Shown: positions 9,001 to 47,925, numbered from the stretch's first letter. The stretch is DNA of 64,000 nucleotides from Euglena gracilis (GCA_039621445.1 CP154954.1:33763737-33827736); one strand, 5' to 3'. Program-made: numbers and translations. The notes: generated by a model from the letters alone, not told the origin.

Positions 9001-10700
9001 GGGATTTGCCCCCCCAAAACGGGTGGGTAACACAAGGGATTTTGTTATTTTGGGGCCCATGAACCGTTCGCCAACCAAAGGCATTTGCCCCCCAAAACGG
9101 GTGGGTAACACAAGGGATTTTGTTGTTTTGGGGCCCTCGAACAGTTGGGCAACCAAAGGGATTTGCCCCCCCCCAAAACGGGTGGGTAACACAAGGGATT
9201 TTGTTGTTTTGGGGCCCTCGAACAGTTGGGCAACAAAACGGATTTGCCCCCCAAAACGGGTGGGTAACACAAGGGATTTTGTTGATTTGGGGCCCTCGAA
9301 CTGTTGAGCAACAAAACGGATTTGCCCCCCAAAACGGGTGGGTAACACAAGGGATTTTGTTGTTTTGGGGCCCTCGAACAGTTGGGCAACAAAACGGATT
9401 TGCCCCCCAAAACGGGTGGGTAACACAAGGGATTTTGTTATTTTGGGGCCCTCGAACAGTTGAGCAACAAAAGGGATTTGCCCCCCCAAAACGGGTGGGT
9501 AACACAAGGGATTTTGTTGTTTTGGGGCCCTCGAACAGTTGGGCAACCAAAGGGATTTGCCCCCCCCCCCCCAAAACGGGTGGGTAACACAAGGGATTTT
9601 GTTGTTTTGGGGCCCTCGAACAGTTGAGCAACAAAACGGATTTGCCCCCCCAAAACGGGTGGGTAACACAAGGGATTTTGTTATTTTGGGGCCCTCGAAC
9701 AGTTGGGCAGCCAAAGGGATCTGCCCCCCCAAAACGGGTGGGTAACACAAGGGATTTTGTTGTTTTGGGGCCGTCGAACAGTTGGGCAACAAAAGGGATT
9801 TGCCCCCCAAAACGGGTGGGTAACACAAGGGATTTTGTTGTTTTGGGGCCCTCGAACAGTTGGGCAACAAAACGGATTTGCCCCCCAAAACGAATGGGTA
9901 ACACAAGGGATTTTGTTGTTTTGGGGCCCTCGAACAGTTGAGCAACAAAACGGATTTGCCCCCCCAAAACGGGTGGGTAACACAAGGGATTTTGTTGTTT
10001 TGGGGCCCTCGAACAGTTCGGCAACAAAAGGGATTTGCCCCCCCAAAACGGGTGGGTAACACAAGGGATTTTGTTGTTTTGGGGCCCTCGAACAGTTCGG
10101 CAACAAAAGGGATTTGCCCCCCCCAAAACGGGTGGGTAACACAAGGGATTTTGTTGTTTTGGGGCCCTCGAACAGTTGGGCAACAAAAGGGATTTGCCCC
10201 CCAAAACGGGTGGGTAACACAAGGGATTTTGTTGTTTTGGGGCCCTCGAACAGTTGGGCAACAAAACGGATTTGCCCCCCAAAACGAATGGGTAACACAA
10301 GGGATTTTGTTGTTTTGGGGCCCTCGAACAGTTGAGCAACAAAACGGATTTGCCCCCCCAAAACGGGTGGGTAACACAAGGGATTTTGTTGTTTTGGGGC
10401 CCTCGAACAGTTCGGCAACCAAAGGGATCTGCCCCCCCAAAACGGGTGGGTAACACAAGGGATTTTGTTGTTTTGGGGCCCTCGAACAGTTGGGCAACCA
10501 AAGGGATTTGCCCCCCCCCAAAACGGGTGGGTAACACAAGGGATTTTGTTGTTTTGGGGCCGTCGAACAGTTGGGCAACCAAAGGGTTTTGCCCCCCCAA
10601 AACGGGTGGGTAACACAAGGGATTTTGTTGTTTTGGGGCCTTCGAACAGTTCGGCAACCAAAGGGATTTGCCCCCCCAAAACGGGTGGGTAACACAAGGG
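1..10700. repeat. Tandem satellite, ~78-80 bp monomer (~135 copies), running off the left edge
   Basis: Monomer GAACAGTTGGGCAACCAAAGGGATTTGCCCCCCCAAAACGGGTGGGTAACACAAGGGATTTTGTTGTTTTGGGGCCCTC repeats head-to-tail. Length varies mainly in the C run. There are no unique spacers. Confidence 0.98.
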
Positions 10701-11950
10701 ATTTGTGTTTTGGGGCCCTAGAACGGGTAGTTTGAGCAAACAAAACATGGCATCTGCCCCCAAAACGGGTTGCCAACGGGATTTTGTATTTTGGGCCTCG
10801 TTGTTTTGGGCCGGTCCCACAAAAGGGACAACACGGGATGTTTGGCACAAGGGATTGTTGTTTTGGGGCAACTCAAAACGGGGCCAACAAAAGGGAATTT
10901 GCCCCCCCAAAACGGTGGCGGTAACAAGGGTCATTTTGTTGTTAGGGGCCGTCGAAATATTTGCACCTGACAAAAAACGGGATTGCCCCCCCACGGGTAT
11001 GGTAACACAAGGGTTTTCTTGTTTTTCCCTCGAACCAGTTGAAGCAAACCGAACGGGTGGGTAACACCAAGGGATTTTGTTTTGTTTGGGGCCCACCAGC
11101 TTCGGCAACCAGTCAAAGGGAATTCACTTGCCCCCAATAAGGGTTGTGAGGGGCACATGCACCAGATTTTGTTGTTTTGCCATGCCTGGCACCAAAGTCG
11201 TCCCCGTTCCTCCCTCGACGGCAACAAAACGGATTGCCCCCCGGGGGAATAAACGGGTGCCGTAAAGCTGGGTGTTGTTGAACCGGGATTTGGATGCGGG
11301 TCTGTGGGTGCTAGACGTCCAAGGTGGAGAGTGGCTGCAGCAGCGGAACCCGGCTGGCAGGCCAGCGGCATGCTAAACCTTGTTGATCCCATAAATCGGT
11401 TGCCGGTGGAACGTTCTGCCTACTTCGAACGTGGCTGCACCCCACCTTTCAAAGATCCTCTTGTTTGTGGGACCCTACCATGTCCCAGAAAACGCCACCA
11501 TAATACACTGTGTCCCAGGAGGAGACGGTGTGGCCATTTGTGTTTTGGCCCATCAGTTGAGGCAACAAAGGGTGCACCCCCCAAAAAATGGCGAGGGGGT
11601 TGCCAGGTTTTTGGGAACCAACTTTTGCCAACTTGTCCCCCCAAAAACGCCAGGATTTTGTTGTTTTGGGGGCCCGAACAGTTTTTCAGCAACCAAAGAT
11701 TTTTGCCCAGGCCCGCCAAGTGGGTACTGGTAACACAATGCTTTTGTTTTGGGGCCCCTCCCCCACGCCAAGATTCGGCAACGGGCGAGGCCCCAAAAGG
11801 GGGTGGGTTATGGTGGTAGGGACGGGGAAACGAAAGAAAAAAAGGAGGGCCAAAGGGAGAAGGGGGCCAACGTTGGAAAAGAAGGGAGGGGGGTTAACCA
11901 AAGTGGGCAACGACCCGCCCCGGGTGGGGACCGAAACGGGAAGGAAAAGA
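10701..11950. repeat. Degenerate edge of the 79-bp satellite (diverged monomers or low-quality consensus)
   Basis: Fragments such as GGTAACACAAGGG, GATTTTGTTGTTTTGGGG and CCCCCAAAA persist amid many indels. Confidence 0.8.
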
Positions 11951-28300: not shown

Positions 28301-31300
28301 ATTTTTTTTCAAAATTTTGGATGTCAGAGGTGACTTAAAAATTAAATCGGCTGCTGTTGTTGGCATCGCTGTGTTGTGGCAGGCAAGCACCTTCCCTCTT
28401 GTATCCACCATCATTGCAAGGAAGCGGCTCAAATCAAACCTTGATGACTGAGGCTGGATGCCACTCCACATATTCATCTCAGGAAAGGGGTAGCACTCTC
28501 TGAACCACCAGCGTCTTCCACAATGCTGCATCTCAGCTCGTTATTGAACCCACAAAAAAACTTCAGACCCATCACATTTGGCCAAAAAAGTCCCTGGTGG
28601 CCCTCCCTCTCCCATTCAATTGAGGTGCCGCTCCGCAATGTCCGCAATGCCCCACACGGGGCCATGACGGCGCTCGTCAGGAGGGCACACCACATTCCCT
28701 TTGTAAGCGCACAGCTGTGGGTGTTCCAGGGATTAAACAAGACGGCTGCAGCACCATCCAGACGGCATTCCGTGTCCCGCAATACAACTGGGCCAAATCA
28801 CAACAACTCGTTGACAACCAAGTTTCCCATAAGACATTTCTAAACCTCCTCCAGGGGGAGAAACTGCACGGGCCTACACGGGCCTGTCAAAAACTGCACC
28901 GCAAAAAAACTGCAAAAAACTGCAAAAAAAAACTGCAAAAAACTGCACTTCAACAAAAAATAACAATAAACAAGCTGAAAGGGTATGCATATGCAAAACA
29001 ACGTAAATTGCTACCGCATGAGCACGCCCCAATTCACTTAACTTTTTTTTGCACGGCTTTGGAGCCGATGACGACAAAAATGGGAGCAATCAATCAAGGT
29101 GCACTGTGCATGGTTTTTCATGCACTGAAATGCAAATCATGTGTCCGGATGACGGGTCACATCGGTTTTCCTGCATCAAAACTTGTGCCGACCATGCCCA
29201 CAAAGATGCCAAACGGCTGTCTTTCTAAATATGGGGAAAATGCACATTTACCCATACACAGAAATTTTCAATGCTTTCATTTCTTGCAGGGGATGTTCAG
29301 TTTGGAACTTCCGGTCCATCACCTGGTAAAGTTTCCCCATGTCACGATGAAAAAAAAAACTACAAAAACCACCACAAACTTTGAACATTGTCCTTAGGGG
29401 AATGCCAAATGGTCTACAACCTGGGAATTTCTTGCAAATAAGAAAGAACTTCTTGCTCTTTGAAGCATTTGGCTTATGTGACATTTGGCCACAATGCTTG
29501 GGGCAAGACCCAATCTTCTTCAGGAGCTCCTTTGCAGCACCATGAATTTCGAAATCCTCAACTCCAACTGCAACCAAAATTTGCACAAAAAAAAGTTTTT
29601 GTATTTAGTCCCTAGGAATCCCGACATAAATAGTTGAATCTGCTCAGGAGTGCGCAAATGACACTTGCCAAAATGAGCATCGTCAAATCTATCAGCACAG
29701 GCTGGAGATGAAGCAATTTTGGTTGGGGAGTAATTGTGGTCTTGTCACCGAGACAATCTGTTGTTTTTTTTTTGGGGATGGTGGCTGCACCAATCTGTGT
29801 TTTTAAGAGGCAAGGCAGTTAGCAAGACAGTTGGGGGCAAAACAATTGGTGGGATAACTGTAGACAACACAACTCCTGAGAGATGATGCCTTTTCTTGAG
29901 AAACACCCTTCAAAACATATAATCCAGCACCAAAAAAAAAACAGACACGTCAGGTTTCCTCAAAATTGGAATAAAAAAAAACTGCAAAAAACTGCATCTG
30001 TGCAGTTTTATTTCAAAAAAAAGGTGCAAAAAAACTGCAAAAAAACTGTAAAAAAAACTGCAAAAAACCCCCCAAAACGTGAAAACTGCAAAAAAAACTG
30101 CAAAAACTGCACGGTGCATATCCCCCCCTGGCTCCTCCCTCCCCCTGCATTCGTGTGTCATTTTGCAAGGCCCCATCTGGACCAGGCTGGCCAGGTTGGG
30201 CATGTTCTACGACTCTCCCAGATGAACGTGCCATCACAGCAGAACCTTAGTGTTTGACCACTCACCACCACCGCGTGTCTATGACATACAGGCTATTTTG
30301 AATTGCACACATCCCAGATGAAAGCAGTGGGTTCCGACTTCGTCTCCCCCTCCTTCTAGTGCCTCTTCCGACCACTCAGGCCTTCGAAGTCGTTGCCCTG
30401 AAAATTTTAATCTTCAGAACGAAGCGTGACTCTGCTTCCTTCTGGCCGCTTTAAATTTTTTTGGGAGTTTCTGTTGCACCTCCTCCTGCCCCTCATTTCT
30501 GCCGATTGACGTCCAAAACGAAGCGGGTTTTGGCAATCTCCGCTTCCCCTTCTCTTCCCATCTTCGCTAAAACCCCCATTTTGGTCATTTTGCATTTTGG
30601 CGACTCGGCATACAGTGGAACTGGGCAATGACGAAAAATTGTTTTCGCTTCGCCTGAAAATTTTGTGTACTTTTCGCCGTTGACTTCCACTGAAAGCATG
30701 CCCCTTTTTTGCTCATTTGGGCCTCTTGTAGAAATCCATTACTCCAAACCAAAACGGACTGTTCCAAAAAAGGTTAAAAACTTTAGGGGGTCGAACGAAG
30801 CGGATTTCCACTTCCTTCTCCGCTTCAAACCTTCAACAACTTTTGGGCAACTTACGCCGCCCAAGCCAAACCTCCAGGGTTTGCCTGTTTTTATTCTTCT
30901 TCAGCTATTTAACACAATTAAGCTAATTAAGTTAATTTGCAGTTGCGGTTGGTCGCCAACACACAGCAGGTGGGGTGGTGGAGCCCAGCCCGCAGCCCAG
31001 TGAACAGCAGCCCTGCTGCGCCCCAACCGAGGCAACGGCCCGTGGGGACGGCCCCCTTCAGGCCCTTCCGCTTCCACACCCAGTCCCCCCCGGGGACCCG
31101 CTGCAGCGTGCCGAGGTGCTCCTCCGGGAAGCACCCGTCGAGGTGGGCCATGAGGGCCTCCGGTGGCCCCGTGAACCTGCGGCACGGGAGGACGATGGGA
31201 GAGGGAGGGGGACGGTTGGGGAGGAGGGCTGGGCTTGGGGTGGGGCCTGTGAATGAAATGCGGGGGGGGGGGGGGGGGGAGGCCGCGGGGGGAAGGGGGG

Positions 31301-34300
31301 GGGAGGAGGACTGGGGGGTGTGGGTAAACTTTCCACTTTTCTCAACGATTGATGACACTATGCGATTTGCAGCATTCTTTTTTTGGAAATTCAGCACCAT
31401 GACCTTGCTTGACAATACTTGAGCTTGAACAGAAAGCGCGCAAAATTTTTTTTTGCATTTTCATTGGTCGGCAGGAGATGGTCGGTATGAATGTGTAAAT
31501 ATGGAGAGTGGGAAGCAGCCCCAAAATTTATAGGTGTCAGTTTTGGTGTGCACGACGGGGGAGGCACACATCAAGTGGGAGTAAAACCACCCAAAATAAT
31601 GTCCCTGAGGGTCGGACTTCGACCGAGGAGTAAATATCCCCCTGCCAAGGACTTCGCACGTGTTGACGGTGGGCAATATTCTTTTTAAGGGCCTTAAAAA
31701 CCTTACAAGAACTTTAAAAATTGGTACCGGAAAATATTTTTCGAATTTTGAGCAAAAAAAAATCACAAAATCTCGGCAAAAACAAATCAACTTCGCGATA
31801 AAATTATTTCTGGCATCGCTGGAAAATTGTCTCTCCACCCAAAACTTAAAACTTAAAAAAAAAATGTGTTTGATTTTTAACCTGGACAGACGTTGTTTCG
31901 ATGCCCGGATGGCTCTTTGACAGCCTGTGAAAAAATGGACGCCTTAAAAATTCTTAAAAATTTGAAAATGCCTGAAAAACCTTAAAAAAACCTTTTAAAA
32001 ACGCCTTAAAAAACCTTTAGTTTTTTAAAAAATTAAAAATAATTGTGCCTGGTTGCTGCCAAGGGTCGCAAAGGCCCGTGCAGTTCTTTCCCTCCCCAAC
32101 ATTCCCGCTGTTTGAGAGACAATCTCTCTTGAGCAAATGCACAAGAGGTGTTCAAGCATTTTCTCTCGCCATAGTTGTTTTGGGGCCCTTGTCCTACCTC
32201 GGATTTTTTGGACTTCAAAAAATTCAGGAGTTAATAACCCCCCCAAATAATCCCCCCCTGGGCCGGAAAATAATACCCGGGGGGTATGATTTATTATTTT
32301 GGGAGGGGGATTCAGACTGATTTGAAAAGGCATCTGCAAACCACCACATTGGGTGGACACGGCCAGAGAGGCGTCGGAGAGCCATTTCATTTGCAGTGTT
32401 CGGCCCGAGACCCCAGCCCCCGCCCCGAGGTGGCCGGGGGAGGGCAGGCCTGCGGCACAGCCGGCGCTCTGCGTCCTCCGCCGTCTCCGGGGCGGCGGCC
32501 TGCACGGCCCGCTTGGCGCGGCGGCGGACGCTGCTGTGGGCGGTCGGCCGGCGCCGCGCCCGCCAGCTGGCGTGGGGGATGGGAGGGGCCAGACCCTACC
32601 CTGGCCGGGGGGCCGGGGGGGGGGAGTGGGTGATGGCCCAGGGGGGTGGGGTGAGTTTTTTTTTTGAGTTCGAAAATCGGAATGGCAACGTTGGAGTTGG
32701 GTTGGCGGCCGACGATAAAACGGAGGGGATGGGTTGGTGGCAACCGTTTCAGTGAAGAGACAGATGGCCAGAGATGGGGGAAGATGGCCAAAGATGGGAT
32801 TCTGTCGGTTTCGAAAGACATGTTATGACCAAAATTTCACAATGCTGATCAACGTCATTTTGTCCCATTTGAGTCTGGCAGGGTTGCACCTTCGAGTTAA
32901 GGTCTGGGCGTGATCCACGGCGTTGGGGGCGGGGTGGCACCCGTCAAGGATTTGTCTCAGAGCAAAGCTGTGGGCACTGTGTGTGCCTGTATGTTCGTGT
33001 GCTGTGTTGTGTTGTGTTGTGTTGTGTTGTGTTGTGTTGTGTTGTGTTGCGTTTGTGTTGCGTTGTGCTGCGTTGTTCTGTGTGTGTGTGTGTTTCTGTT
33101 TGTACGTTGTGTGTATGTGTGCAAACGTGTGCGTGCGTGCGAGGGTGTATGCACGGACAGGGTGTCACCAGAAATCGATTGCAGTGATGCCACCACAAAC
33201 CTGGGCAAAACAATGGTGACCAAGTTGGAAGTAGACCTATCCCAACCTCAGTGACGGTCGGCTGCAAAGAGGGAGCATGGCCGTCCCGGGCAGGGGGACC
33301 TCCGGGCTGCGGCGGACACTGCCCAGCCGGACCCACTCCGCCTCCGGGAGCTCCCACGGCTGGGCCGCCTGGCGCATCACCGGCAGGCTGGCGGGCCACT
33401 GCGGGTGCACGCCGAAGTCGAACACCCCCACGGGCACGATGGGCCGGGGGCAGGGGCGGCGCACTGCTGTGACCCCCCGGATATCACAACCCCCTGCCAG
33501 GACATTAAAATCAGAGCTGCACACCCCCTCCCCTGATGGAATTGCAAAAAGCAAATCACGAAAAAAATATCATTGTGTGGCAATTTTTTTGTTATTTAGT
33601 GTGAACCATCATTTTCCCTTACAAATGGTGCCCAGCTAAGAAATGTTGGAAAGCACATGTGTGTTTCTGGACCCGAATTTTTGAGGGTGAAATGTGCCCC
33701 CCCCAATAAAAACCTTGAAATCTCACCCCAGTATAAAGGATAAACTACACAGAAATGGTGCTCGAAAAATGGGGTGGTGGTCCTTGCCCGAGGGTTCAAC
33801 GTAAGGGCAGGTGGAGGAGGTCAGAACCCTCTTCGGTCCAGGAGGGAAGGGACACCCCTTCCCTAAACAGGCGCAGTCCGGTGACCGGTGTCAACGGTGT
33901 CAATCGAAATCAGAATCAGCGGTGTCCGGTGATTGTCGGTCTTGGCGCGAATTGCTGGACCGAAAATCTCTGCCCCAAAGACGGCCAAAGATGCATTTTT
34001 GGGCACTTCTTGGGCAAAAATACGTCTAAAATGCAAAAATTTTGGGCGCAAAGCGCCAGAAGGAAAATTTTGATGTTTTGGGGGGTCCCGGGTACATCCC
34101 CCCCTTGGCAGGGGGGTCAGGTGGAGGTGTCCCCCGGTCCAGCAGGGGGTACACCCCGCACCTTCACCTTGAACGCCTCCTTATATCGAACCCTGCCTTG
34201 CCCTCAGCGATACTCAAAGTGATGGCTGGACCTGCGTTGCCGCCACCCCTGGGTTGCCCTCACGCCGGTGCGTCCCGCGGTGCCACTTGTCGTTGAGCGG

Positions 34301-37300
34301 CATCCTCAGGCTTCCGGTGGCAGTCCGCCATTCATGCCTGACACCATCTGCAGTCAATGGTTTCTCGCAAAAAAAAAACAACAAAAAATGCACATGCACT
34401 GCACACAAAGTGCACATGTGTGTATGAAGCTCTCTGTGTACAGAGCAGAAGATGTACCCTCCGACAGATTGCCACTTGAAAGGTTGACCATTGCTGGGGA
34501 CTTTGATAACTTCTGACAATTACTGGTTGGCTGGCAATCAGCGACCAGCATGGGTAATCATTTGTCCTCCATAGGGTTATTATTATTCGAAAAATTGGTT
34601 AAAACCTGGGGAGGGGATGGGGGGGGGGGGCTATTTTTGGGGGCTATTCTTGGAGGTTTTGCGTCGAAAAATAAATGCATTTGAGCGTTTACAGCAAATC
34701 AAAAAAAAATAATGATTGAAACCCCCCAGTGTTACATCACCGTGTAAAATGGAACTGCTCAAGCTCAAGCTTTCCGTGGGGGGTCCAGCCGGCTGAGGGA
34801 TGGCTGGTACCCGAAAATGGGCAAGCAACCCCAAATCCAGCTGGGTTGGAATTTCCAACCAAATATTTGAAGGTGAAACACCCAAAACCCCTCGAAAATA
34901 CCACTTTGCGCCATTCTGTCCAAGTTCCAAAGTTTACGGTGCTTTGTGCCGAAAACCATTTTTTCCCAGTCCCAACTTAATTTCAGTGAACCCGCGGGGG
35001 TCCAAAGTCCAGATGGGGCCTCCTGCTGAAAAAAAAAAACCTCTAGCTGGCTGGACCCCCCGGGGGGGGGGGGTCCTCTCCGGCCGAAGGAAACCCCTGC
35101 CTGCCTGCCTGCCTGCCTGTCAGCATGCAACTCCCAGGCACAGCGTGGCGAACGGCCGGAGAGGCGGAGGCAAGGCGGCAATGGCGGGCCGGGCGGCGCG
35201 CACGGCAGTGATGTCGAACACGACGTTCCACAGCTCCGCCGGGGGCGGGGGCGGCACGCGGCCCGTCGGGTCGGCCATCACCGCCAGCAGGTTGGCCGAG
35301 AGACCGGCCAGCGGGCCCCACGGCCCCTGCGACGCGGCGTTCAGGACGTCCGAGGCAGGCGCCGGGCCGGTGCGCATGGCACCCCCCCCACCCGGCCGTC
35401 ACGGTGCAGTGTGGTGTAGTGGGGGTATCAGGGCATCGGGGCAGGGCCTGGCCCACCGTCTTGAGGCGCACCACGTGGGCGCGCTCCGTGTCGACGTGGA
35501 TGTCGGGCCACACGCAATGGAAGCTGGTCTTGGCGCCGACGAGAGGCATATGCTTTTTGGAGTATGCGTCCATGCGCACACCTGTGCACATATTGTGTGT
35601 ATGCATGTGTGTATGCATGTGTGTGTGTGTGTGTGTTTCAGTATGGGGTACACCATTCCGAAGGCAAGTTTGCGGCGCCAGAGCCCCTCGCCGGCCGGGG
35701 CAGTCCTTCTCCTTGCTCCAGCCGCTGCCGGTGAAGAGCAACAGCCGCAGCGGCCGCAGGCACGGGAACATGTCCAGCAGGATGCGGGCCCGGAACCGCC
35801 AGAACGCAAACTCGTCCCTGGGGACCGCCTGCCCACCGGGCGGGGGAGGGGGGGCGGAAGGTGGGGGCGACGCCTCCCGGGATGGCAATGCGTTGATGCC
35901 GGGGCCGGCGATGCACATCGGGGATGGCTTTGGGGTGTCGTGCAGAAGACAATGGACCTTTGGGGTTGGGGGTGTGGACATCGGATGACGTCCCTCAGAC
36001 CAAGCTTTGAGATAAGGGCAGGTGGGAGGGCCCCCCCTTGGTTGGGGGGACACCCCCAACTGAACCCCGACCACCTCCCCCCCCTCCCCCCCATAGGGGT
36101 TCCCTGGCTGGAACTGGGCCCAACCCGGGGAAAAATCGAAACTCCAAAATGCCCCCAAAAACTGTCAGTTATGCAAAAAAAAAAAACGATTTTTTGACCC
36201 AAATTTGCCCTGGCCAGCCCAAATCCAACTCATTTTTGCCAATTTTCACCCATTTTTGCACCTCTGAAAGCCAAAAATCCATCACCATCCAGCTGCCCAA
36301 AGGACAGCTGGGAAATAAATAAACCTCGTCGATGGGGGGGGGGGTCCGGGGCTGGAAAACGGCTGCTGGCTGGCAGGACCCCCAGGGGGGGGGGAAGGGT
36401 GCCCTTTGGCTTAAGAGACGCCCTGGGGTTCTGCAGCCCAGCTGGGAGTGCTGGCTGGAGAAAAGGTGCTGGCTCGCTAGACCCCCTCCCGGGGGTAGGG
36501 TGGATCCGGTTTGAGAAATTCCCTGATTTAGAAATCAATGCACTCACCGATGATGGTGATGTCCAAAATAAAGGTTGCCCAAGGTGTCCTTTGCCACTTG
36601 CCGAGCTGTTCTGAGGCCAAATGGTCAGGCTCACCGCGGTCAATCATGGTGAGTGTGCCGACCGTCTTTCCTTTCTGTCTGAGCAGGCAGGCACGCGGCG
36701 GCGTTGTGCAGCAGCTCGTTGGGGGGCTGGGCCAGGGGCTCCCCCTGATGCGCCGGGCTTCACTGAAATGCCTTTCCAGTGGGCACACAGCCGCCCAAAC
36801 CGTTCCCCCCCAACGTGTGAAGCTCCAGGAATGCCGGCCGACTGGTCAAAAAAGAACACCCAGTTCGGGCCCTTGGGAGGGTTCCCGTGAAAATAGCAGC
36901 ACGGTAATTGACTTTTGGGACATCGTGCAATGTTGCACATGATGTCTTTGAATGTCTGAACCTCGAAGGCGATGAAAAACATTTTCTCCGCATTCTCTCT
37001 GGTGAACAAAAAATAGCTTCTTTTGGCAAAAAAAAATTGTCGATGAACATTTTGGGGGATTCACACCTTGCCTTGGTGACATGACAATCCGGACCACCTG
37101 TTGGAACGGAGGCCCTGCTGGGCACACTGCGGAGCAAGCAGGTCGATGTCCTCCGTGTACGGGTGGCGCCACCGCTGCGTGTCGCGGCATAAACCCCCCC
37201 CAAAAATAAGACCCCGGGTCCATTTCATGGGTCGGTTGCTGGAAGGCCCGAGGGGGGGTCTTATTCATGGGGGGGGGTCCATTTTATGGATTTTTTCTGG

Positions 37301-38067
37301 AAAAATTTTCGACCCCAAAATGTCCAAAAATGCCCCCCAAAATACCATTTTTCGGCGCTTCGCGCCAGACAAATAGGGGAAAATATGCTGAATTGTATGG
37401 AAACTGTCCCAAAATGACAGATTTACCCCCCAAAATGGCCCTTTTTTCAAAAATCTGGCGCTTCGCGCCGGCAGGGGGGGTCTTATTCATGGGGGGGTCC
37501 ATTTCATGGATTTTTGCTCGGACCGGCCAGGGGGGTCTTATTTTTTGGGGAGGGTCCATTTTATGGGGGGGGTCTTATTTTTGGGGGGGGTTAGGTCCAT
37601 CCCCACGTCCCACCGGCAGGGATTGCATGGCGCTGCGGTGGGCAGTGCAGGGTGTGGCGCTCCACCAGCGTGAGTGGTCGCCCAGCGCGGTGGCACGCCG
37701 CTGGCCCCAGGGCTGCCCACCGGGCCTTGCCAAAGGGGGGGGGAGGGGGGGCGTGCCCATGGCAGAGTGCTTCCCTGCCCCCAGGGGGAGGAAAGCAACC
37801 CGGTGCCTCAAAAAAAAAAACGTGACACAAAAAAAAACAGGAAAAAACACAAATAAACTCAAATAAACACAAAAATCACAAGTTGCATGTAAAATACTTC
37901 AGGAGCTCCTCCAAAATGTGGACCCCCCCCCCGGTGTGAACCCCGGCCCACACCTTGGGTAGGCCTGGCCACAGCCTCACAGAGGGTGGGGGCCAGCTCG
38001 TCAGGGACCTTCAGCTTGCCGGTCGGGGTGAGGAAGTCCCGGCCGCCCATGAGGCTCGAATGGGTCG
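25394..38067 (-). CDS. Archaeo-eukaryotic primase (AEP/PrimPol-like, NCLDV-type) domain protein, multi-exon; 5' part extends further upstream
   Basis: Exons ~38067-37971, 37702-~37660, ~37178-37100, ~36745-36697, 35828-35697, 35531-35454, 35350-35195, 34315-34255 and 33445-~33280. They give THSSLMGG..TGKLKVPDE..EAVAACHRAGRPLTLVERH..RHPYTEDIDLL (motif I DxD)..FTGSGWSKEKDCPKTSFHCVWPDIHVD (motif II SxH)..WNVVFDITAVRAGSLRMPLNDK (motif III D)..EGRPIVP..WVRLGSVRR. Likely downstream exons lie at ~32570-32445, ~31180-31045, ~26750-26685, ~25670-25530 (GK repeat) and ~25465-25394 (stop). Confidence 0.82.
27211..27657. mobile_element. GGCAG...CTGCC element with AT flanks and internal TTAGGG/CCTAA-like repeats
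   Basis: AT|GGCAG...CTGCC|AT; internal TTAGGGTTAGGGTTTAGG and CCTAACCCT. Same architecture as 51523-51808. Confidence 0.6.
28852..30130. mobile_element. CAGGGGG...TGCATATCCCCCCCTG family element with AAAACTGC subterminal repeats and ~0.85 kb of internal sequence
   Basis: Termini match the 22770 and 39724 copies. Flanks CCTCCTC / GCTCCTC (6/7). AAAAAACTGC arrays at 28890-28950 and 29975-30110. Confidence 0.6.
32990..33145. repeat. (GTGTT)n / (GT)n microsatellite
   Basis: Direct inspection. Confidence 0.9.
33446..34254 (-). other. Non-conventional intron, 809 bp
   Basis: accCAGgggtggcg...cgccgcccCTGccccc; removal gives REGRPIVP. Confidence 0.85.
34316..35194 (-). other. Non-conventional intron, 879 bp
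   Basis: gccCGGcccgccatt...aatggcggaCTGccacc stem; removal gives VRA|GSLRMP. Confidence 0.85.
35351..35453 (-). other. Non-conventional intron, 103 bp
   Basis: ggcCAGgccc...ggcgcCTGcctcg; removal gives KTV|DVLN. Confidence 0.85.
35532..35696 (-). other. Non-conventional intron, 165 bp (stop-free, in frame)
   Basis: ggcCGGcgagg...ctcgTCGgcgcc stem containing a (CA)n tract; removal gives KDCP|KTSFH. Confidence 0.75.
37188..37594. mobile_element. MITE with ~25-bp TIRs inside an AEP intron
   Basis: AACCCCCCCAAAAATAAGACCCC ... GGGGTCTTATTTTTGGGGGGGGTTA, with internal repeats of GGGGGTCTTATTCATGGGGGGGTCCATTT. Confidence 0.75.
37703..37970 (-). other. Non-conventional intron, 268 bp
   Basis: ggcCAGgcc...gccCTGgggcc; removal gives EAVAACHR. 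Confidence 0.78.
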
Positions 38068-38989
38068 GCCGGCAGGGGGACCGGGGAACAAAGGGCAGGG
38101 CAGAGGTGGTGGTGGGCGGAAAACAGCTGCAGGTTGCAGCTGTTTTAACAGCAATGGGCAGAAAGCCATTTCCTCAACAAGCAAATCTTGGTTCAAACGG
38201 GGATCAGGGTGTTGCTCAAAGACTCTCTGGGGGGTCCAGCTCAGAGGCTTGGAAAATGGAAAAAGGCTGTTGGCTGACCCCCCAACCAGACCCAGGGTCA
38301 AACTGGGTAAACCCTCCCCCAAATAACCCCCCCATTGGGGTCTGACTTTAACCGAAAAAAATAATACCCCCAATCTGCGACTGCATTTGAAAATAAGAAA
38401 TCACGGCAATAAATGACCAAAAAATGAGTTTCTGTGGTCTGGCCTCCAAAAAAAATATCAATTTTTTGGCAAAAAAAAATGCAGAAAATGACCAAAAAGG
38501 TTGGCTTTGGGTGTAATTTGGGGTCTTATGGATTTTCAAATAATAACCCCCCCAAATAAAGCCCCAGGGGGTTTTCCAAAAAAAAATCGAAACTCCAAAA
38601 AAGACTTAAAAAAATCAATTTTTTTTGACCCCAAATAATCCCTGGTCAGCCCAATCCGATCTATTTTTGACCATTTCACCCCATTTTTTTTGCACCTAAA
38701 ATCCATAACTGTCCAGCCGCCTTCGGGTGGCTGCAAACTAAATAAAACATGGATGGGGGGGCTAGAAAAAAGTTGCTGGCTGGCTGGACCCTGTGGTCAA
38801 ATTTTCTTAAGCAACGCCATTCAAAAAAAATGGGCACCACCTTGACGATACCCCAAGCAGACGATACCCATGCAGACATCCACCGAGAGCTGTCAGGTAG
38901 CCAACCAAGAGTCGATCCACGTAAAAAACGAACCGTGGAAGGAAAAAAATGTTTTTTGCTCTTCGCCGAGGATGGGGTTGCCTCAAGGC

Positions 38990-41900
38990 TCTGGCCACCG
39001 ATGCCACGCTGGGGGCAGCCCCCCTGGCCCAGTCCTTCTCCGCGTGGTCGCAGGCGCACGACCGGATCGCCCGCAGGGCCCGCTGGGTGGCGGCGTCGAA
39101 GGAGGCCAGGAAGGCGCCGTGGGGCGCGGCGGGCAGCGGGGCGCCCCCCGGGGTGGGGCACGGCGCCTCCCCGGGCCTCCGGCCATCCTGAGCTGACAAT
39201 TTGTTTCAAAAAATAATTTAACTTTTGGGGGAAATTTGTTGAGCTCCGACTTCCATTTTATTGAAAAACGCTTGGATGATACTACGAACACGAAAATACC
39301 AAAAAACCAGGGGTGTAATTGCACCAACAATGGAACACCAAAATCCCCCTGAATGAGATCCTGGCAAATCCAATAGAATTTCAACTGAAACTCTCCCAAC
39401 ACCCACAAAAAACGTTTTTTTTTCTTCACAACCCTCCTTTTAAAAAAAACTTCCAGGTGCGACTTTGTCTGAACCACACACACCCTACACCACTGCCCAA
39501 CGTCACTGGAGCGCCGCGGTTGGGGGCCACCGTTGCCGAAGCGGCCCCCAGCGCCGGGGCAACCGTGGAGGACGTGGCGGCGGCGGGGACGGGGGCGGTG
39601 GGCCGGGGATGTTGATGGGCTGGCAGCGGCAGGAGGGCGGGGGGCTGGAAGTGTTGGGGCACGCCGCTGGGGGCAGGGCCGGGTGGGGAGGGGAGCAGGT
39701 GGGGGAGGCCGGCGAGCTGAAGCCAGGGGGAGGGAATTTGCAGCAAGGCTCTTCAAAATAAGCAATGCAAAAAATGCAAAAAAAATGCAGGTTTCATGTA
39801 AATTCCTTTAGGGGCACCCCGTGGCTGTACACTTCTCCACCGGAGAGGACTTTTAAAACATTAACCTGCTCCAACAAAGCAACAAAAAGAAAATGTGGGT
39901 GCAAACTGCAAAGTTATATTGGTTGTTTCACCAAATTGCATCCGCGTATCTTTGACTATGCAACTACCACTGAGGTGAATTAGGTCCAAAAACGTGAGGT
40001 ATTGCAACTTCCAGTGGTCTGAAAGTGGAGAAATTTTCCTGTGTTGCCTGCACAAATGCCCAGGGAAAAAAAAAACGGAAAATATGCAAAATTGCATAAA
40101 ATGCGACTTTGTTCAAAATGTTCAACTTTTTCTTTATTATGCAAAAAGTGCAAATTTTCAAGATTTGGATTATGCAAAAGAAAATGCAAAGTGTCAGCTT
40201 GCATATCCCCCTTGCTGAAGCGTCACAGTCAACCACATGGGGGGGGGGGATCCAGGGACTGCGAAAAGCATTTGATTTCAATTCTCTCCCAATTCCTCTG
40301 CTGGTTTTTGGGGGGTTCGGCGAAATATCAACAAATCACAAAAGAAAGAGCGAAGCTGGCCTTCCTTCTGCATTGTCAACTGTGGGTGTTGGCGCTGGTG
40401 GGTATTCGTTGCAGATACCCAGGGACGCCGAACGCCGAACGCCGTTGCCTGTTCACCGCATTCGCAACGATTATGCACGATCCCACAGACTGCGGAACTG
40501 ACCGCTCGGACCATCCCACGTTGGTGTGGAGTTGACAAGAAATCGGCGAGGCAACCTCCTGGGCGGTGGCAGTGCCTTGCCAGGTGGAACACCCACTATC
40601 TGGTCCAATCTATTACTCCCCTTCCCTTTTGTCGGGCGTGTTTGAGAACCTCTAAAGCACAACCAGTGTCCAGAGGGTGGACACTTTTTTTCCCTTCAAT
40701 ATTACTTATCAGTCTTTTTTTGGCTCCTTGCTCGAGGTGATAAATTGGGGAGGGGTATTTGACCTGCCCCCTACGGCGGCAATATGTCATACCGGGGGGG
40801 GGGGGAAATTTTGTGCCAGAGAAACTTTGCGGCGACAAATTTCGCGGACGACAAATTTCGCGGGATTTCTTAAAAATGTCCGGAAATATTTCGCGGGATT
40901 TTTTTTCCTGTGAAGCAAAAATGGCGTGAAAGGGAATACATGGACAAAAATTTCGCGGGATTCCTTAAAAATGCCCGGAAATATTTCGCGGGATTTGCTT
41001 CCGCGAAATTTGTCCGCGCAAATTTTCTCTAGGGCAAAATTTTTCCCCCCCCGGTATTTGCTTACAGTGGATTTGAGTGGGTCGATTTCGGAGGCACTGC
41101 TCTCTCACCCCTCCGTCCGACATGCTCCATGCTCCATGGAGGAATGGGCTCAGAGGAGAGGAACCCGGCGAAAAGCAAACGGCCAATGCATCCAGCCCTG
41201 GCTGACAAAGATCGGGACCAGAGGCAGGGGCAGGGGAACGGGGATGGGGGCCCGCTCAACAGGAGGGGGGGGGCATATCCTGCGTGCCACAACTCCTCGT
41301 TCAGGGTTTTAATTCTGGGATATTTCGGACATGAGGTGACTTTAAAAAAAATGCTGGAGGAATCATACTCCAGTCATCCAGGCATCTTTGTCTGTTGGCT
41401 AATGGTAATGGCCGGGTTTGTTGCGACTCATTCTCCAAAACATGTCCAAGATAAAGAAGCATTGCACCAAACTTGGGGCATTTTCTTTGCGTGAAGGGCA
41501 AACCAATGTGCACAAAACAAGTCTGTACAGAAGAAACTGAAAAAAAAAATAATACCAGAAAACCCCCAAGGAAAAATCAGCAGGGCTGAAAATTCCTTTT
41601 ATTGGAAATACCCCTGTGGAATTCATCAAATGCATGTAATTTTCGCAACAACAAAAAACCGGTTGGCAGAACCATGGCAATGACTATTTCAGAACTGTTC
41701 TTTGGGATGTTTTCCAAAATAGCAGATTTTGGTTGCTGCTTCTTGGCAATCTGTTTGCGCGGAACCAGAAGGGATCAGGAAGCCCCGAAACCCTATGGGC
41801 AGCATAGGTGCGGGGTGTAACGCCTCACCAGGCCTTCCTGTGCAGCCTTGACCTCTCCAGATCTTCAATGCGGTCATTCATTTGTGCTTGTCCTGCTGAA

Positions 41901-44000
41901 TGGCTAGAATGATTTTGTTTACCCTCAAAAATTCAATACAATGACCTTTGGTTTTTTTTATATTTATGTTCACTTTCATAAACCAAACAATTTAGGTCAC
42001 CAAGGTCCAAATTGACTCATCAAGCAGTGCTGAACCCCAAACCCCTGCCCGACCCCTGTGGGGTGGCCCTCCCCTGCTGCCGAACTATGCCGAAGGGCAT
42101 TGTTCTTCCCCCTTCCATCCTGCCTTCCATCGTTCTTCCCTGGGCAGAGTCCTCGGCAGGGGCACATAGACGGGCCGGGGGTCAAACCGGGGCTGTGAGA
42201 CTGCGCAGGGCCGGGCGGGCGGGGCCACAGGGCCGGCGGCCATGGGCGACGCGGCCAGCGGCGGGCAAGGCCACTTCCTCCAGGGTTGATTTGTGCATGC
42301 CGATGATTCGGAACCTCTGTTCCTCGAAAGCGACAGGTGCCTGCTACGAGGTGCCCGTGCGCGCATGCGCGCGCGCGCGTGTGTGTGTGTGTGTGCGAGG
42401 TGACCAGGGCTGTCCGGGAAAGCCTGGGGGCCCCCCACTGCCTGTGGGCTGGGTGGGGGCAGCACGGGGGGCCCCTGCTCCGGCCGCCGTGGAGGACGTG
42501 GCGGTGGCGGCGGCGGCGGTGGGCCGGGGCTGCAGCCAGTCCGGCATCGGCAGGAGCGCTGCGGGCGGCGGAGGCGAGGGCACGCCGGGCCCAGGGCCGG
42601 GGGGGGGGGGGGGATCCCCCCTGTCATGTGGACGGCCCCGCCCCCGCGAGCTCGTTTAGGCTGCCGGTGGCACACCAGTGGGACAAGGCTTGGGCCGCAC
42701 GGTTGGGGGGGGGAAGCCCGGCCCTGGCGGACGCCCACTGGGGCGGGGCCGGCAGGGCGGACAGCAGCCTGGCCCGGAGCCAGGGAGGGAGGAAGGGGTT
42801 CCCCGGCACGGCAGTGGACAGCCCCCCCCCGCCCCCCCCCCCCGGCCGTGCCCGACAAATGCCTGGGGGGGGGGGACAACCGAGGCGCTGCCACCACCGG
42901 ACCGGGGCTGGGACCAGAGGCCTCCTCGGGGGGAGGGTCGCCCTCCCTGGACGGTGCCCGCGCCGGGGCCGAGGAGAGGGACCGGGGCGGCGGGGGCTTC
43001 GGCGCGTCGTGGGGTGGTGGCGCCGCTTCCTCTGCCGGCGCCGGCGGTTCCGCTTCGGGGCGCGTTGTGGGCGGGAGTCCCCACACAGGGACCTCGCACC
43101 ACGTGCCACAGCGACAATGGCAAACAACCTTCCCCTTCCTGGTGAATGCCAGTCCCAACTGTTTATCACCATTTCTACTAATGAAAAAACATGATTACTA
43201 TTTTGACTATTGTTACTATTATCACTATTTGTTGTGGTCAGAAAGCTTTCACTGCCAAAATTACTTCATACAAAAAAATCATCCTTTCATCCTTGGGAGT
43301 TGAGTTCCCTGCAAAATATGATTCTTTTTGGTTTGAACAATATTATGTTTGGGCAACGGCTAACTGCCTGGTTGCGGGAGGGGTCACTTGCGCAGTAGAA
43401 ACCTCTCGCTCCAGGGTTTGATTTGTCATGCCTACGATTCTGAACCTCGTTTCCTGTAAAGCGACAGGTGCCTGCTACGGGTGCCCGCGTTTGTGTGTGG
43501 TGCGCGCGCGTGTGTGTGTTGTGTGTGTGTGTGTGTGTGTGTGTGGCGTTGGGCGGCAGGGCCAGGTTGGCGTAGAGCCAGGGGTGGGGGTCGGTGGGGG
43601 ATGACGTCATGGCCCCAGGGGTCCCTTTGGGGTCATGTAAAGGAGAAAAGGAACACCGCCACATCAGACGTGGCAGGAATCCTGCGGCGGAGGGGCTTTC
43701 AGAAACCGCCGGGGTGGGCATCAACCCATGCTGGGAAAGCGATGGGGGGAAACCCCTCCAGATTCCCATCACCGGCGAGGTGCGGTGATGCGGGAACGAG
43801 GGAGAGTCCGTCCGGAAATGAGTGCAGCTAACATTCGAGGAAGACATGCAGAGTTGCCCTGGCACAGCATCACCAATGACAATTCCATGATGGAGGATGA
43901 GGCGGATCAAACCCAGGGGCTCTGGTCTCCTGACTCGAAGGGGTCCCAGGGCTTCTCACCTTGGAGGTGGCTGCAGCAGGGCCTGAGCTGCCTGTGCAGG
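38990..44000 (-). CDS. Low-complexity Pro/Ala-rich exons upstream of the AEP domain (probably the same gene)
   Basis: Coding-like GC-rich blocks at ~39185-39030 (GAFLASFDAATQRALRAIRSCACDHAEKDW), ~39615-39505, ~42590-42450, ~43060-42890 (PEAEPPAPAEEAAPPP) and ~44000-43555. Junctions are unresolved. Confidence 0.5.
39724..40214. mobile_element. Copy of the 22770-23274 MITE family
   Basis: Shares GCAGCAAGG...ATTCCTTTAGG...GGCTGTACACTTCTCCAC...TGCATATCCCC; flanked by CTGAAGC on both sides. Confidence 0.85.
40792..41054. mobile_element. Tc1/mariner-like MITE, TA TSD, ~50-bp TIRs
   Basis: TA|CCGGGGGG..AAATTTTG..AGAGAAA..ACAAATTTCGCGG ... CCGCGAAATTTGTCCGCGCAAATTTTCTCT..AAAATTTTTCCCCCCCCGG|TA. Confidence 0.85.
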
Positions 44001-46053: not shown

Positions 46054-47925
46054 GCTGAGCTCTTATCTCTTTAGAGTAAGAGCGAAGCTTACCACCCCGG
46101 CGACGGGGGGGTCCGACCCCCCCGCCCCCCCGCCCCCCCCCGCCCCCCCTGGGTAGGTTGGGTGCCCCTAGGATTATCGATGTGATTGGATTTCCGGACC
46201 CGAGAAGTGAATAGCCTATAGGTTAGGGGACGATCCCTAGTTTCTCCAGAGCCGTCACGTTACCCGCAACTCCTCGCCAGTCCGGAGATATGGCCCGAGC
46301 AAAAAAGTTGTCTACCGTTTTTTTTCCAAAGAAATTTTGTTGGACCGGCAAAAGGGGTCATTTTTGGGGTCAAAAAATCGAAAAATTCAAAATATCTCGA
46401 AAAGGCTGGGGAGTTGAGAAAAAGTAAAGAGTACCTCATTCCACAACATTGGGACGCCCTATCCACCAGTATGCGCGGTTTGGGCCAACTCCCCGCCTGG
46501 GCCGAGATACGGCCGTTTTGAGGGTTCGCCACGGGGGGACTCTGCCATTTGGAGCCCAAAACGGGCCAAAAAACCAGTTTTTGCAAAATATCTCCAAAAT
46601 CGTGGGGAGTTGAAAAAAATGTCCGGAGACCTAAATTGAAGCCCTTGGAACGCCCTATCTACTAGTATTTTGATTTCCCCGCAACTCTCCGCCTAGCCGT
46701 AGATACGGCCGTTTTCAGGTCCAAATGGCCGTTTTGTACACTTTTCCCTCTGTCCGACTTAGCCGTTTTCGGGCCAAAAATTCGAAAAAAATCGAAAATT
46801 TTTTTTTTGCCCAAAACCATGTTTTTAGGCTTCCTGGACCCGGAAAACGTGTTTTCGAGTTGAAAATTGGCGTTTTTCGACCCGCCAGCCCCTCATGGCC
46901 CTCATGGTCATGATGCGCATGATGCCCAATGATGGCCATCATGACCAATGATGGCCATCATGACCCCGGATGGCCATCATGACCAATGATGGCCATCATG
47001 ACCATGATGGCCATCATGACCAATGATGGCCATCATGACCCCGGATGGCCGCCATGACCAATGATGGCCACCATGACCCCAGATGGCCATCATGACCAAT
47101 GATGGCCATCATGACCCCGGATGGCCATCTTGACCCCGGATGGCCATCATGACCCCGGATGGCCATCATGACCAATGATGGCCATCATGACCCCAGATGG
47201 CCATCATGACCAATGATGGCCATCATTACCCCGGATGGCCATCATACCCATGATGGCCATCATGCCCAATGATGGCCATCATGACCAATGATGGCCATCA
47301 TGACCCCGGATGTCCATCATGACCAATGATGGCCATCATGACCCCGGATGGCCATCCTGACCCCGGATGGCCATCATGACCAATGATGGCCATCATGACC
47401 CTGGATGGCCATCATGACCCATGATGGCCATGATGACCCCGGATGGCCATCATGACCCATGATGGCCATGATGACCCCGGATGGCCATCATGACCAATGA
47501 TGGCCATCATGACCCCGGATGGCCATCATGACCCATGATGGCCATCATGCCCAATGATGGCCAACATGACCAATGATGGCCATCATGACCCCGGATGGGC
47601 ATCATGACCAACGATGGCCATCATGCCCAATGATGGCCATCATGACCAATGATGGCCATCATGACCCCGGATGGCCATCATGACCCCGGATGGCCATCAT
47701 GACCCAAGATGGCCATCATGACCTCGGATGGCCATCATGAGCATCATGAGCATCCGGGTCGGGCCGGGCCGCCGGGCCGCCGGGCCGCCGGGCCGCCGGG
47801 CCGCCGGGCCGGGCCGGGCCGCCGAGCTGCCGGCCGGGCCGCTGGCCGGGCCGGTCCGGCCGCCGGCCGGGCGCCGGGCCGGACTGGGGTGGTCTCCCAA
47901 AGAGCTCAGCTCTACGTCACACCCT
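46054..47925. mobile_element. Unclassified inserted element with asymmetric inverted ends and internal tandem arrays
   Basis: Absent from the 59181 copy. Starts GCTGAGCTCTT, with AAGAGCTCAGC at 47900-47910; GGTC on both sides. Confidence 0.7.
46900..47750. repeat. 19-bp palindrome-rich minisatellite GATGGCCATCATGACC(AAT/CCG), ~45 units
   Basis: Direct inspection; followed by a (GGGCCGCC)n GC-rich tract at 47755-47885. Confidence 0.95.

Follow-up and report, generated by a model that had tools for sequence, protein, structure and literature searches.

The window analysed here, a 64,000-nt stretch of the Euglena gracilis genome (GCA_039621445.1 CP154954.1:33763737-33827736), consists of GC-patchy eukaryotic DNA in which short GC-rich islands lie amid repeat-rich sequence. 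Its minus strand carries a gene that is real, expressed and divided into at least 12 small exons, and the spliced product contains the three catalytic motifs of the archaeo-eukaryotic primases (AEPs) in their usual order, which makes it a candidate PrimPol-like enzyme. An earlier reading, made from the sequence alone, had placed at 33280-38067 an AEP primase-polymerase split by non-conventional introns and resembling the enzymes found in nucleocytoplasmic large DNA viruses (NCLDVs). Here, we investigated how far transcripts, family comparisons and domain searches bear this out.

The motif peptides quoted in that reading were all found again by six-frame translation of 32800-38600, on the minus strand within 33280-38067 and distributed over three reading frames. 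Transcript data were drawn from Logan contigs of three runs belonging to three studies (X1, X2 and X4) and from raw RNA-seq reads (X21), all aligned to 31001-42000. Nineteen runs of one organism contain 5-15% of the sampled words of 31001-41000, a share that is expected of a spliced transcript from an intron-rich gene; four of the runs matching this region are raw RNA-seq, and one run that contains 73% of its words is probably genomic. Exact joints in the contigs and reads define ten coding exons, from 39158 down to 33292, followed by a 14-nt micro-exon and then a further exon. Of the eight joints within 33280-38067, only 35349>35453 is missing from a contig run (it is present in X1 and X4), the other seven being common to all three, and each of the eight is supported by one to three raw reads. 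The joint 38065>39029 was seen in two of the three contig runs (X2 and X4) and in none of the raw reads. Moreover, a single 877-nt contig of X4 covers 33289-38065 across all internal joints. When joined by their coordinates, the ten exons yield one stop-free frame of 309 residues with a GC content at third codon positions (GC3) of 0.94; overall GC content is 0.73 in the exons and 0.53 in the 4937 nt of intervening introns. The confirmed parts of the gene are, in the order of transcription:

39029-39158, minus strand: exon 1 of the confirmed series, which is not the first of the gene; residues 1-43 of 309, high GC3; joint 38065>39029 (X2, X4).
37971-38065, minus strand: exon 2, with T-H-S-S-L-M-G-G-R-D-F (G-G-R-D-F at 38047-38033) and G-K-L-K-V-P-D; joints 37702>37971 (all three runs, two reads) and 38065>39029.
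37644-37702, minus strand: exon 3, with L-V-E-R at 37668-37657, candidate counterpart of the PrimPol Y-E; joints 37164>37644 and 37702>37971 (all three runs; three and two reads, respectively).
37117-37164, minus strand: exon 4, with the motif I sequence E-D-I-D at 37153-37142; joints 36725>37117 and 37164>37644 (all three runs, three reads each).
36696-36725, minus strand: exon 5, 30 nt, between the exon with D-x-D and that with S-G, absent from the motif strings of the sequence-only reading; joints 35815>36696 and 36725>37117 (all three runs).
35697-35815, minus strand: exon 6, a predicted helix and then a hydrophobic strand ending in T-G-S-G-W-S-K; joints 35531>35697 and 35815>36696 (all three runs).
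35453-35531, minus strand: exon 7, with the motif II sequence K-T-S-F-H at 35531-35517 and the helix that follows it; joints from transcript contigs and reads.
35194-35349, minus strand: exon 8, ending with the motif III sequence F-D-I-T-A-V at 35218-35201; joints 34314>35194 (all three runs) and 35349>35453 (X1, X4, one read).
34255-34314, minus strand: exon 9, with L-R-M-P-L-N-D-K at 34309-34286, which supplies the Arg and Lys of the motif III region; joints 33445>34255 and 34314>35194 (all three runs).
33292-33445, minus strand: exon 10, with the R-P of E-G-R-P (E-G closes exon 9) and G-S-V-R-R; joints 33445>34255 (all three runs) and 32585>33292 (X1, X2).
32911-32924, minus strand: micro-exon of 14 nt, whose 14 letters are found in X1 at joint 32585>33292, between its flanks, and have a single occurrence in the window.
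32550-32585, minus strand: start of exon 12, Arg-rich; 36 nt confirmed by record 1 of X1.

The contigs of three studies and the raw reads thus join the motifs in frame, as the sequence-only reading had anticipated, and the gene lies where that reading had put it, but its exons continue past both ends of 33280-38067. On the 3′ side, high GC3 in frame suggests that the coding part of exon 12 may run on to approximately 32405, which would give this exon about 60 Arg-rich codons. On the 5′ side, record 14 of X2 aligns with 39029-39158 and continues with 10 letters that fit nothing in the window there. A GC3-rich candidate for an upstream exon, ending at 39596, was rejected, because the contig reaching it goes on with sequence that is missing from the window over its first 12 bases.

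All 11 introns (nine between the ten exons and two flanking the micro-exon) lack GT..AG borders. According to the published splicing code of Euglena, a donor CAG at +4 to +6, after a 3-nt spacer, is matched by an acceptor CTG at -8 to -6, before a 5-nt spacer, with CGG-CCG and CGG-CTG as variants and a purine opening the acceptor exon (PMC12501133). Scored exclusively at slides that leave the mRNA unchanged, six of the 11 introns (2, 7, 8, 9, 10 and 11) fit this code exactly, and for five of these six a purine opens the acceptor exon, the exception being intron 11, which at slide +1 is followed by a T. Complementary triplets occupy the code positions in introns 3, 4 and 6, and introns 1 and 5 have no exact fit. 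Since both introns flanking the micro-exon at 32911-32924 obey the code (CGG-CCG and CAG-CTG), the placement of this micro-exon is supported. Non-conventional introns of such a type are described from euglenids and diplonemids only (PMC6221363). The sequence-only reading, which had spoken of at least five non-conventional introns, therefore recognized their type correctly but counted too few, as there are eight within its span and 11 in total.

The AEP fold combines an alpha/beta module with an RRM-like one. AEPs are defined by the motifs hhhDhD/E, sxH and hD/E (PMC4538821). As had been proposed, all three have counterparts, in AEP order, in the spliced frame. For the first, the candidate is D-I-D at 37150-37142 within E-D-I-D, and its D-x-D stands 11 residues after the Glu of L-V-E-R. 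In the second, S-F-H within K-T-S-F-H (35531-35517) agrees with sxH, and in the third, the F-D that opens F-D-I-T-A-V (35218-35201) agrees with hD/E. Past the Asp of motif III, L-R follows at a distance of 9 residues, and a Lys is found 6 residues past the Arg; compared with the spliced protein, giant-virus PrimPols have an Asp-to-Arg distance that is longer by one residue and an equal Arg-to-Lys distance.

These comparisons required reference families. Giant-virus contigs from IMG/VR were reached via an archaeal RNA polymerase, and a crude AEP pattern run over two whole records retrieved one open reading frame (ORF), P0004 (L208:11461-12507), which encodes a compact, 349-aa PrimPol that bears a UL52-type finger. 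Its identity as a PrimPol follows from its PDB matches to human PrimPol (5l2x/7jk1, E=1.4e-6) and from its match to Pfam Herpes_UL52 (24.9 bits, cut-off 21); it also matches the poxvirus D5 primase domain 8xig weakly (E=0.19). Relatives of P0004 at E<=0.001 number 127, from metagenomes and giant-virus bins, and 120 of them (P0005-P0124) together with P0004 form the PrimPol reference family of 121 proteins. A wider search of IMG/VR yielded the same family only, at an identity of at least 41%. The set of PriS comprises 35 ORFs recovered via PF01896, of which five archaeal genomes contributed 5 and the phylum of a Thorarchaeota/Asgard genome the other 30; 34 of the 35 were aligned. A D5-like giant-virus helicase (L196/L199) was dropped as an AEP reference, as it is without an evident AEP part; the gene at L199:3638-6091 encodes a D5_N/SF3 helicase of 817 aa, whose N-terminal ~250 aa are of low complexity (Gly/Ala and Val/Glu repeats) and show no evident primase domain.

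The strongest indication of kinship with PrimPol comes from a pattern built from the columns that are invariant in 24 diverse members of the giant-virus PrimPol family, E..D.[DE] ... K.S.H ... D..[FLM]R..K, that is, nine residues with spacing windows. This pattern matches the spliced protein at residues 89-248, all 121 members of the giant-virus family and none of the 35 PriS. It was found in 1 of 200,000 composition-preserving shuffles of the spliced protein and in 1 of the 691 ORFs of two giant-virus contigs, this one being the PrimPol itself. Among the 658 distinct ORFs of at least 160 aa in all DNA of the analysis, nine PrimPol genes match and none of the 649 others does. On this evidence, chance would not be a comfortable explanation for the match. 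The test is nevertheless post hoc, for its residues are family-derived but its windows were widened after the protein was known (relative to the family, the protein has its Glu and Asp closer together by two residues and its Asp and Arg by one, and L/M were accepted besides F), so that its true significance is weaker than 5e-6.

A considerable body of results weighs against an AEP. In motif I itself, Y-T-E stands before D-x-D in place of three hydrophobic residues, and the usual strand is not evident. A hidden Markov model (HMM) of the 121 PrimPols gives the spliced protein -5.0 bits, at motif II only, whereas scores among 1000 shuffles go up to +1.4. With hhalign, the probability against the PrimPol profile is 0.35-0.69%, over 13-20 columns that cover motif II and the helix after it, and hmmalign of the spliced protein to the family returned no alignment. 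Pairwise phmmer and blastp comparisons with the PrimPols gave nothing below E=0.3, the top-scoring matches being misplaced; the best-placed blastp match, to P0043, starts at motif II and is 37 residues long (E=5.2). A phmmer search with the spliced protein over both giant-virus contigs (691 ORFs) had a best E of 0.89. The HMM of the 34 Asgard PriS likewise misses the spliced protein, and every one of the 49 targets that it does report, out of 202, is a shuffled control; hhalign against PriS (0.4%) pairs the strand of motif III with PriS motif I. Statistics of conserved-block chaining and threading did not DISCRIMINATE: block chaining has p values of ~0.005-0.065, and most blocks fell outside the catalytic motifs (the real score was attained by 5 of 500, 3 of 300, 7 of 300 and 11 of 300 shuffles for PriS, and by 1, 2 and 13 of 200 for PrimPol), and in invariant-residue threading the real count was attained by 12, 38, 196 and 212 of 250 shuffles. 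In favour of the PrimPol reading, the single stretch on which the alignments of both HMMER and hhalign to the family profile fall is motif II in exon 7, at its homologous place. All profile comparisons used a single-sequence query and narrow reference families. Their failure is to be expected given how divergent the euglenozoan members are, with TbPPL1 and TbPPL2 having an identity of ~16% and ~11% to human PrimPol and ~10% to each other (Rudd et al. 2013, PMC3898837), but failure is still not evidence.

Database searches add to this side of the balance. They were run with contiguous pieces, the spliced protein not being a contiguous translation, and for no such piece did Pfam, PDB or the ESM Atlas return an AEP match. 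One query, P0002, joins exons 6 and 7 through the 165-nt intron between them, which is in frame and was translated along with them; another, P0003, is frame 1 of 34256-39157 with stops given as X and contains exons 1, 2, 4, 8 and 9. Pfam found nothing relevant in eight ORF pieces around the exons, and in ten flanking pieces it found DUF6894 only (E=0.01, below its cut-off). For P0003, both Pfam and PDB gave nothing relevant, and a comparison with five giant-virus records gave 0 matches. P0002 had one unrelated match in PDB (E=0.45) and nothing relevant in the ESM Atlas (best score 0.80); its AlphaFold model, with a mean pLDDT (predicted local distance difference test) of 47, is unusable and places low-confidence helices at residues 2-26. 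Loci related to P0002 in viral contigs and metagenomes were rejected, as both matches are due to intron-derived residues and one locus, L002, is bacterial. In word searches of 5.8 billion protein clusters, exon 7 gave two candidates, neither of which scored, and exon 6 no candidate with three common 5-residue words.

Accessory domains that might have assigned the protein to a particular branch are also missing from what was searched. The confirmed exons hold no UL52-type CHC2 finger, and Pfam detected no UL52 finger (PF03121) in the flanking ORF pieces. The patterns C.D..C and C..H..N and the CHC2 spacing, when sought in single minus-strand ORFs below 33300, gave only apparently unrelated matches in minisatellite and low-complexity sequence, and a finger split by an intron would be missed in such a search. 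PF03121 was not found in the record of L001 either, where the controls also gave no signal. PriCT-2 (PF08707) is absent from 18 ORF pieces by Pfam; here too, the exons are short and a split domain would be missed. In six giant-virus records, PriCT_2 had one weak match (E=0.023), under the cut-off.

The explanation that we favour is that of an ordinary expressed euglenid nuclear gene, whose mRNA is assembled from at least 12 short, very GC3-rich exons upon removal of non-conventional introns with paired ends (CAG/CTG type) and without GT..AG borders. The protein would carry an AEP catalytic core of the PrimPol kind, from the NCLDV-herpesvirus branch. In such a core, the Glu together with D-x-D would represent the metal-binding motif I, in the DxD form known from trypanosome PPL2; K-x-S-x-H would be the nucleotide-binding motif II; and the hydrophobic residue with Asp, followed by [L]R and Lys at PrimPol-like spacing, would be motif III and its triphosphate-binding residues. 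The analogy suggests that the enzyme might serve as a DNA-templated primase and/or a damage-tolerant polymerase in the maintenance of nuclear or mitochondrial DNA. That the product is an AEP of some kind seems fairly likely from the order and spacing of its motifs, rather than from its fold or a significant alignment, and a PrimPol-like AEP as just described is, on balance, the reading that we lean towards. The claim of the sequence-only reading that an AEP is encoded here is accordingly upheld in part, by motif order, spacing and the invariant pattern, but not by any significant profile or alignment similarity. Its further view that the layout is nearer to NCLDV-type enzymes and PrimPol than to the replicative PriS agrees with the pattern counts, at the level of motifs, and with the negative PriS comparisons, but no standard statistic backs it.

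Against this stands the alternative that the gene is real and expressed but that its product is a lineage-specific protein of some other fold, with a coincidental likeness to the AEP motifs. This we regard as unlikely, though it deserves serious weight: every alignment-based test is at or under the level of the shuffled controls, the contiguous pieces have no signal in Pfam, PDB or the Atlas, neither exon 6 nor exon 7 has a relative by word search in the 5.8 billion clusters, and motif I lacks its usual hydrophobic strand. Such a coincidence would, however, have to produce nine residues in PrimPol-like order and spacing, as 1 of the 200,000 shuffles and none of the 649 unrelated ORFs did, and to have the only stretch aligned by the profiles fall on the homologous motif II. 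Another possibility is that the protein is an AEP, but of the D5 or iridovirus type, and acts like trypanosome PRI1/PRI2 as a mitochondrial replicative primase rather than as an enzyme of the PrimPol/PPL type. Two primases of the NCLDV-herpesvirus clade, PRI1 and PRI2, do occur in the sister group, the kinetoplastids (PMC4538821), no UL52 zinc finger was found in the searched exons and ORFs, and the weak match of P0004 to the poxvirus D5 domain 8xig (E=0.19) indicates that the two types share motifs. PriCT-2, which PRI1 and PRI2 carry (Guilliam et al. 2015, PMC4538821), is nevertheless on none of the ORF pieces searched, and we consider this assignment quite improbable.

The PrimPol clade as a whole is thought to be NCLDV-like in origin (PMC6222260), and the locus is filled with repeats, so that a decaying viral or mobile-element remnant, transcribed but non-functional, might also be envisaged. 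A frame with a GC3 of 0.94 that is kept open although 11 introns of host type are removed from it, each precisely, and joints that are identical in runs of several studies, make this highly improbable. As to the domesticated viral-type gene that the sequence-only reading had envisaged, the gene looks fully host-like in its introns and GC3, and nothing at the locus appears recently viral. A more far-reaching variant of the PrimPol-like reading is that the protein founds a euglenid-specific AEP lineage, in which a PrimPol-type core without UL52 finger or PriCT-2 lies beyond the current profiles, and which might serve an unusual replicon such as multiple linear mitochondrial chromosomes or extrachromosomal rDNA circles. 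It would fit with three negatives, namely the lack of a finger, of a relative by word search and of a profile match. These have ordinary explanations too (the 3′ end of the gene is incomplete, the searches were word-limited and the queries were single sequences), and we hold this variant to be rather doubtful.

PrimPol-type genes are widespread in eukaryotes. If the PrimPol-like reading is true, the gene adds a euglenid member to a group of enzymes so far studied in trypanosomes, with a sequence unreported in the literature searched; it would come as no surprise to specialists. We found no paper on a euglenid PrimPol-like gene: a search combining Euglena and PrimPol led to a paper on trypanosomatid telomeres, the accessible part of which does not discuss a Euglena PrimPol, and the word 'primase' is absent from the main text of PMC7052976. 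Irrespective of the function of its product, the locus is a worked example of a gene invisible to ORF-based annotation, with exons of 14-156 nt and 11 non-conventional introns, and the introns on either side of its 14-nt micro-exon both follow a splicing code published only recently.

Intron 3 harbours a repeat element:

37192-37592, no strand assigned: non-coding repeat element of ~400 bp, with perfect 24-nt inverted repeats at its ends and internal G-rich direct repeats.

Its contig depth is 117-1192 in the three contig runs (1192 in X1), versus ~10-18 for the contigs of the gene, and it looks like a member of an abundant family resembling miniature inverted-repeat transposable elements, present in many transcripts. 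Very high contig depth (36-383 in X1, X2 and X4) was also observed at 36139-36505 and 40543-41276, which are probably other dispersed repeats. A microsatellite of intron 10, (TGTGT)n/(GTTGT)n at 32998-33094, gives rise to a long spurious ORF. A joint between 35069 and 38797, which skips 3727 nt and is present in all three contig runs, has only 22 letters on its shorter side and lies at G-rich sequence; it may be a repeat from another locus. Among the X21 reads, 439 of the 454 aligned ones fit only partly, and apparent joints and backward jumps at 31260-31282 and 32607-32624 were read as sequencing artefacts, given their long poly-G loose ends and G-rich stretches. An expressed exon at 31046-31176 (a 335-nt contig of X2 at depth 14, X21 read depth 9-15), whose neighbouring contig parts lie outside 31001-42000, is probably part of another gene immediately downstream.

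Farther from the gene, tandem repeats make up sizeable parts of the window. A 79-bp satellite forms two blocks, at 1-1155 (~15 copies) and 1196-10724 (~120 copies), with 91-92% matches. Between 13244 and 17532 there are several blocks of a 21-bp minisatellite with the unit GGTGACGCACATCCACCGGAC and ~68-75% matches, which generates long spurious ORFs rich in His, Arg, Val and Asp on both strands, and 46895-47740 is a 19-bp tandem array of ~45 copies with 85% matches.

Among known AEPs, the replicative PriS/Prim1 family (PF01896) shares with the euglenid protein the general motif logic, and its consensus strings for motifs I-III resemble the three sites by eye, whereas the PriS HMM and hhalign return nothing and the PrimPol pattern is met with in none of the 35 PriS. 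Trypanosome PRI1 and PRI2, of the D5 or iridovirus type, belong to the same AEP clade and come from the same phylum as the host (PMC4538821); they differ in having PriCT-2, which was not detected in the euglenid ORF pieces, and are set against the protein here by their description. Closer parallels are offered by the giant-virus PrimPols, which have the nine-residue pattern in common with the euglenid protein as well as local similarity from motif II into the next helix (P0043), but are intronless, ~340-360 aa long and furnished with a UL52 finger by Pfam, and their family HMM misses the euglenid protein. In human PrimPol (5l2x, 7jk1), as in the euglenid protein, E...D.x.[DE], K.x.S.x.H and D...[FL]R...K follow one another in this order and at roughly the same spacing, and a helix and then a hydrophobic strand ending in small residues lie ahead of motif II, a likeness that rests on the alignment of P0004 with 5l2x, the family invariants and the pattern test. 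The two differ in that the euglenid protein has no significant similarity to the human one, carries DxD rather than DxE in motif I, with polar residues preceding it, has insertions between G-x-R-x-F and the Glu and within motif II, and shows no CHC2 finger in its confirmed exons. T. brucei PPL1 and PPL2, which like PrimPol have a C-terminal UL52-like CHC2 finger (PMC3898837), differ from the euglenid protein in this same respect. They resemble it, by published description rather than by sequence, in being euglenozoan, PrimPol-like and extremely divergent from the animal PrimPol, and PPL2, which is essential in trypanosomes, likewise has DxD as its motif I (PMC3898837).

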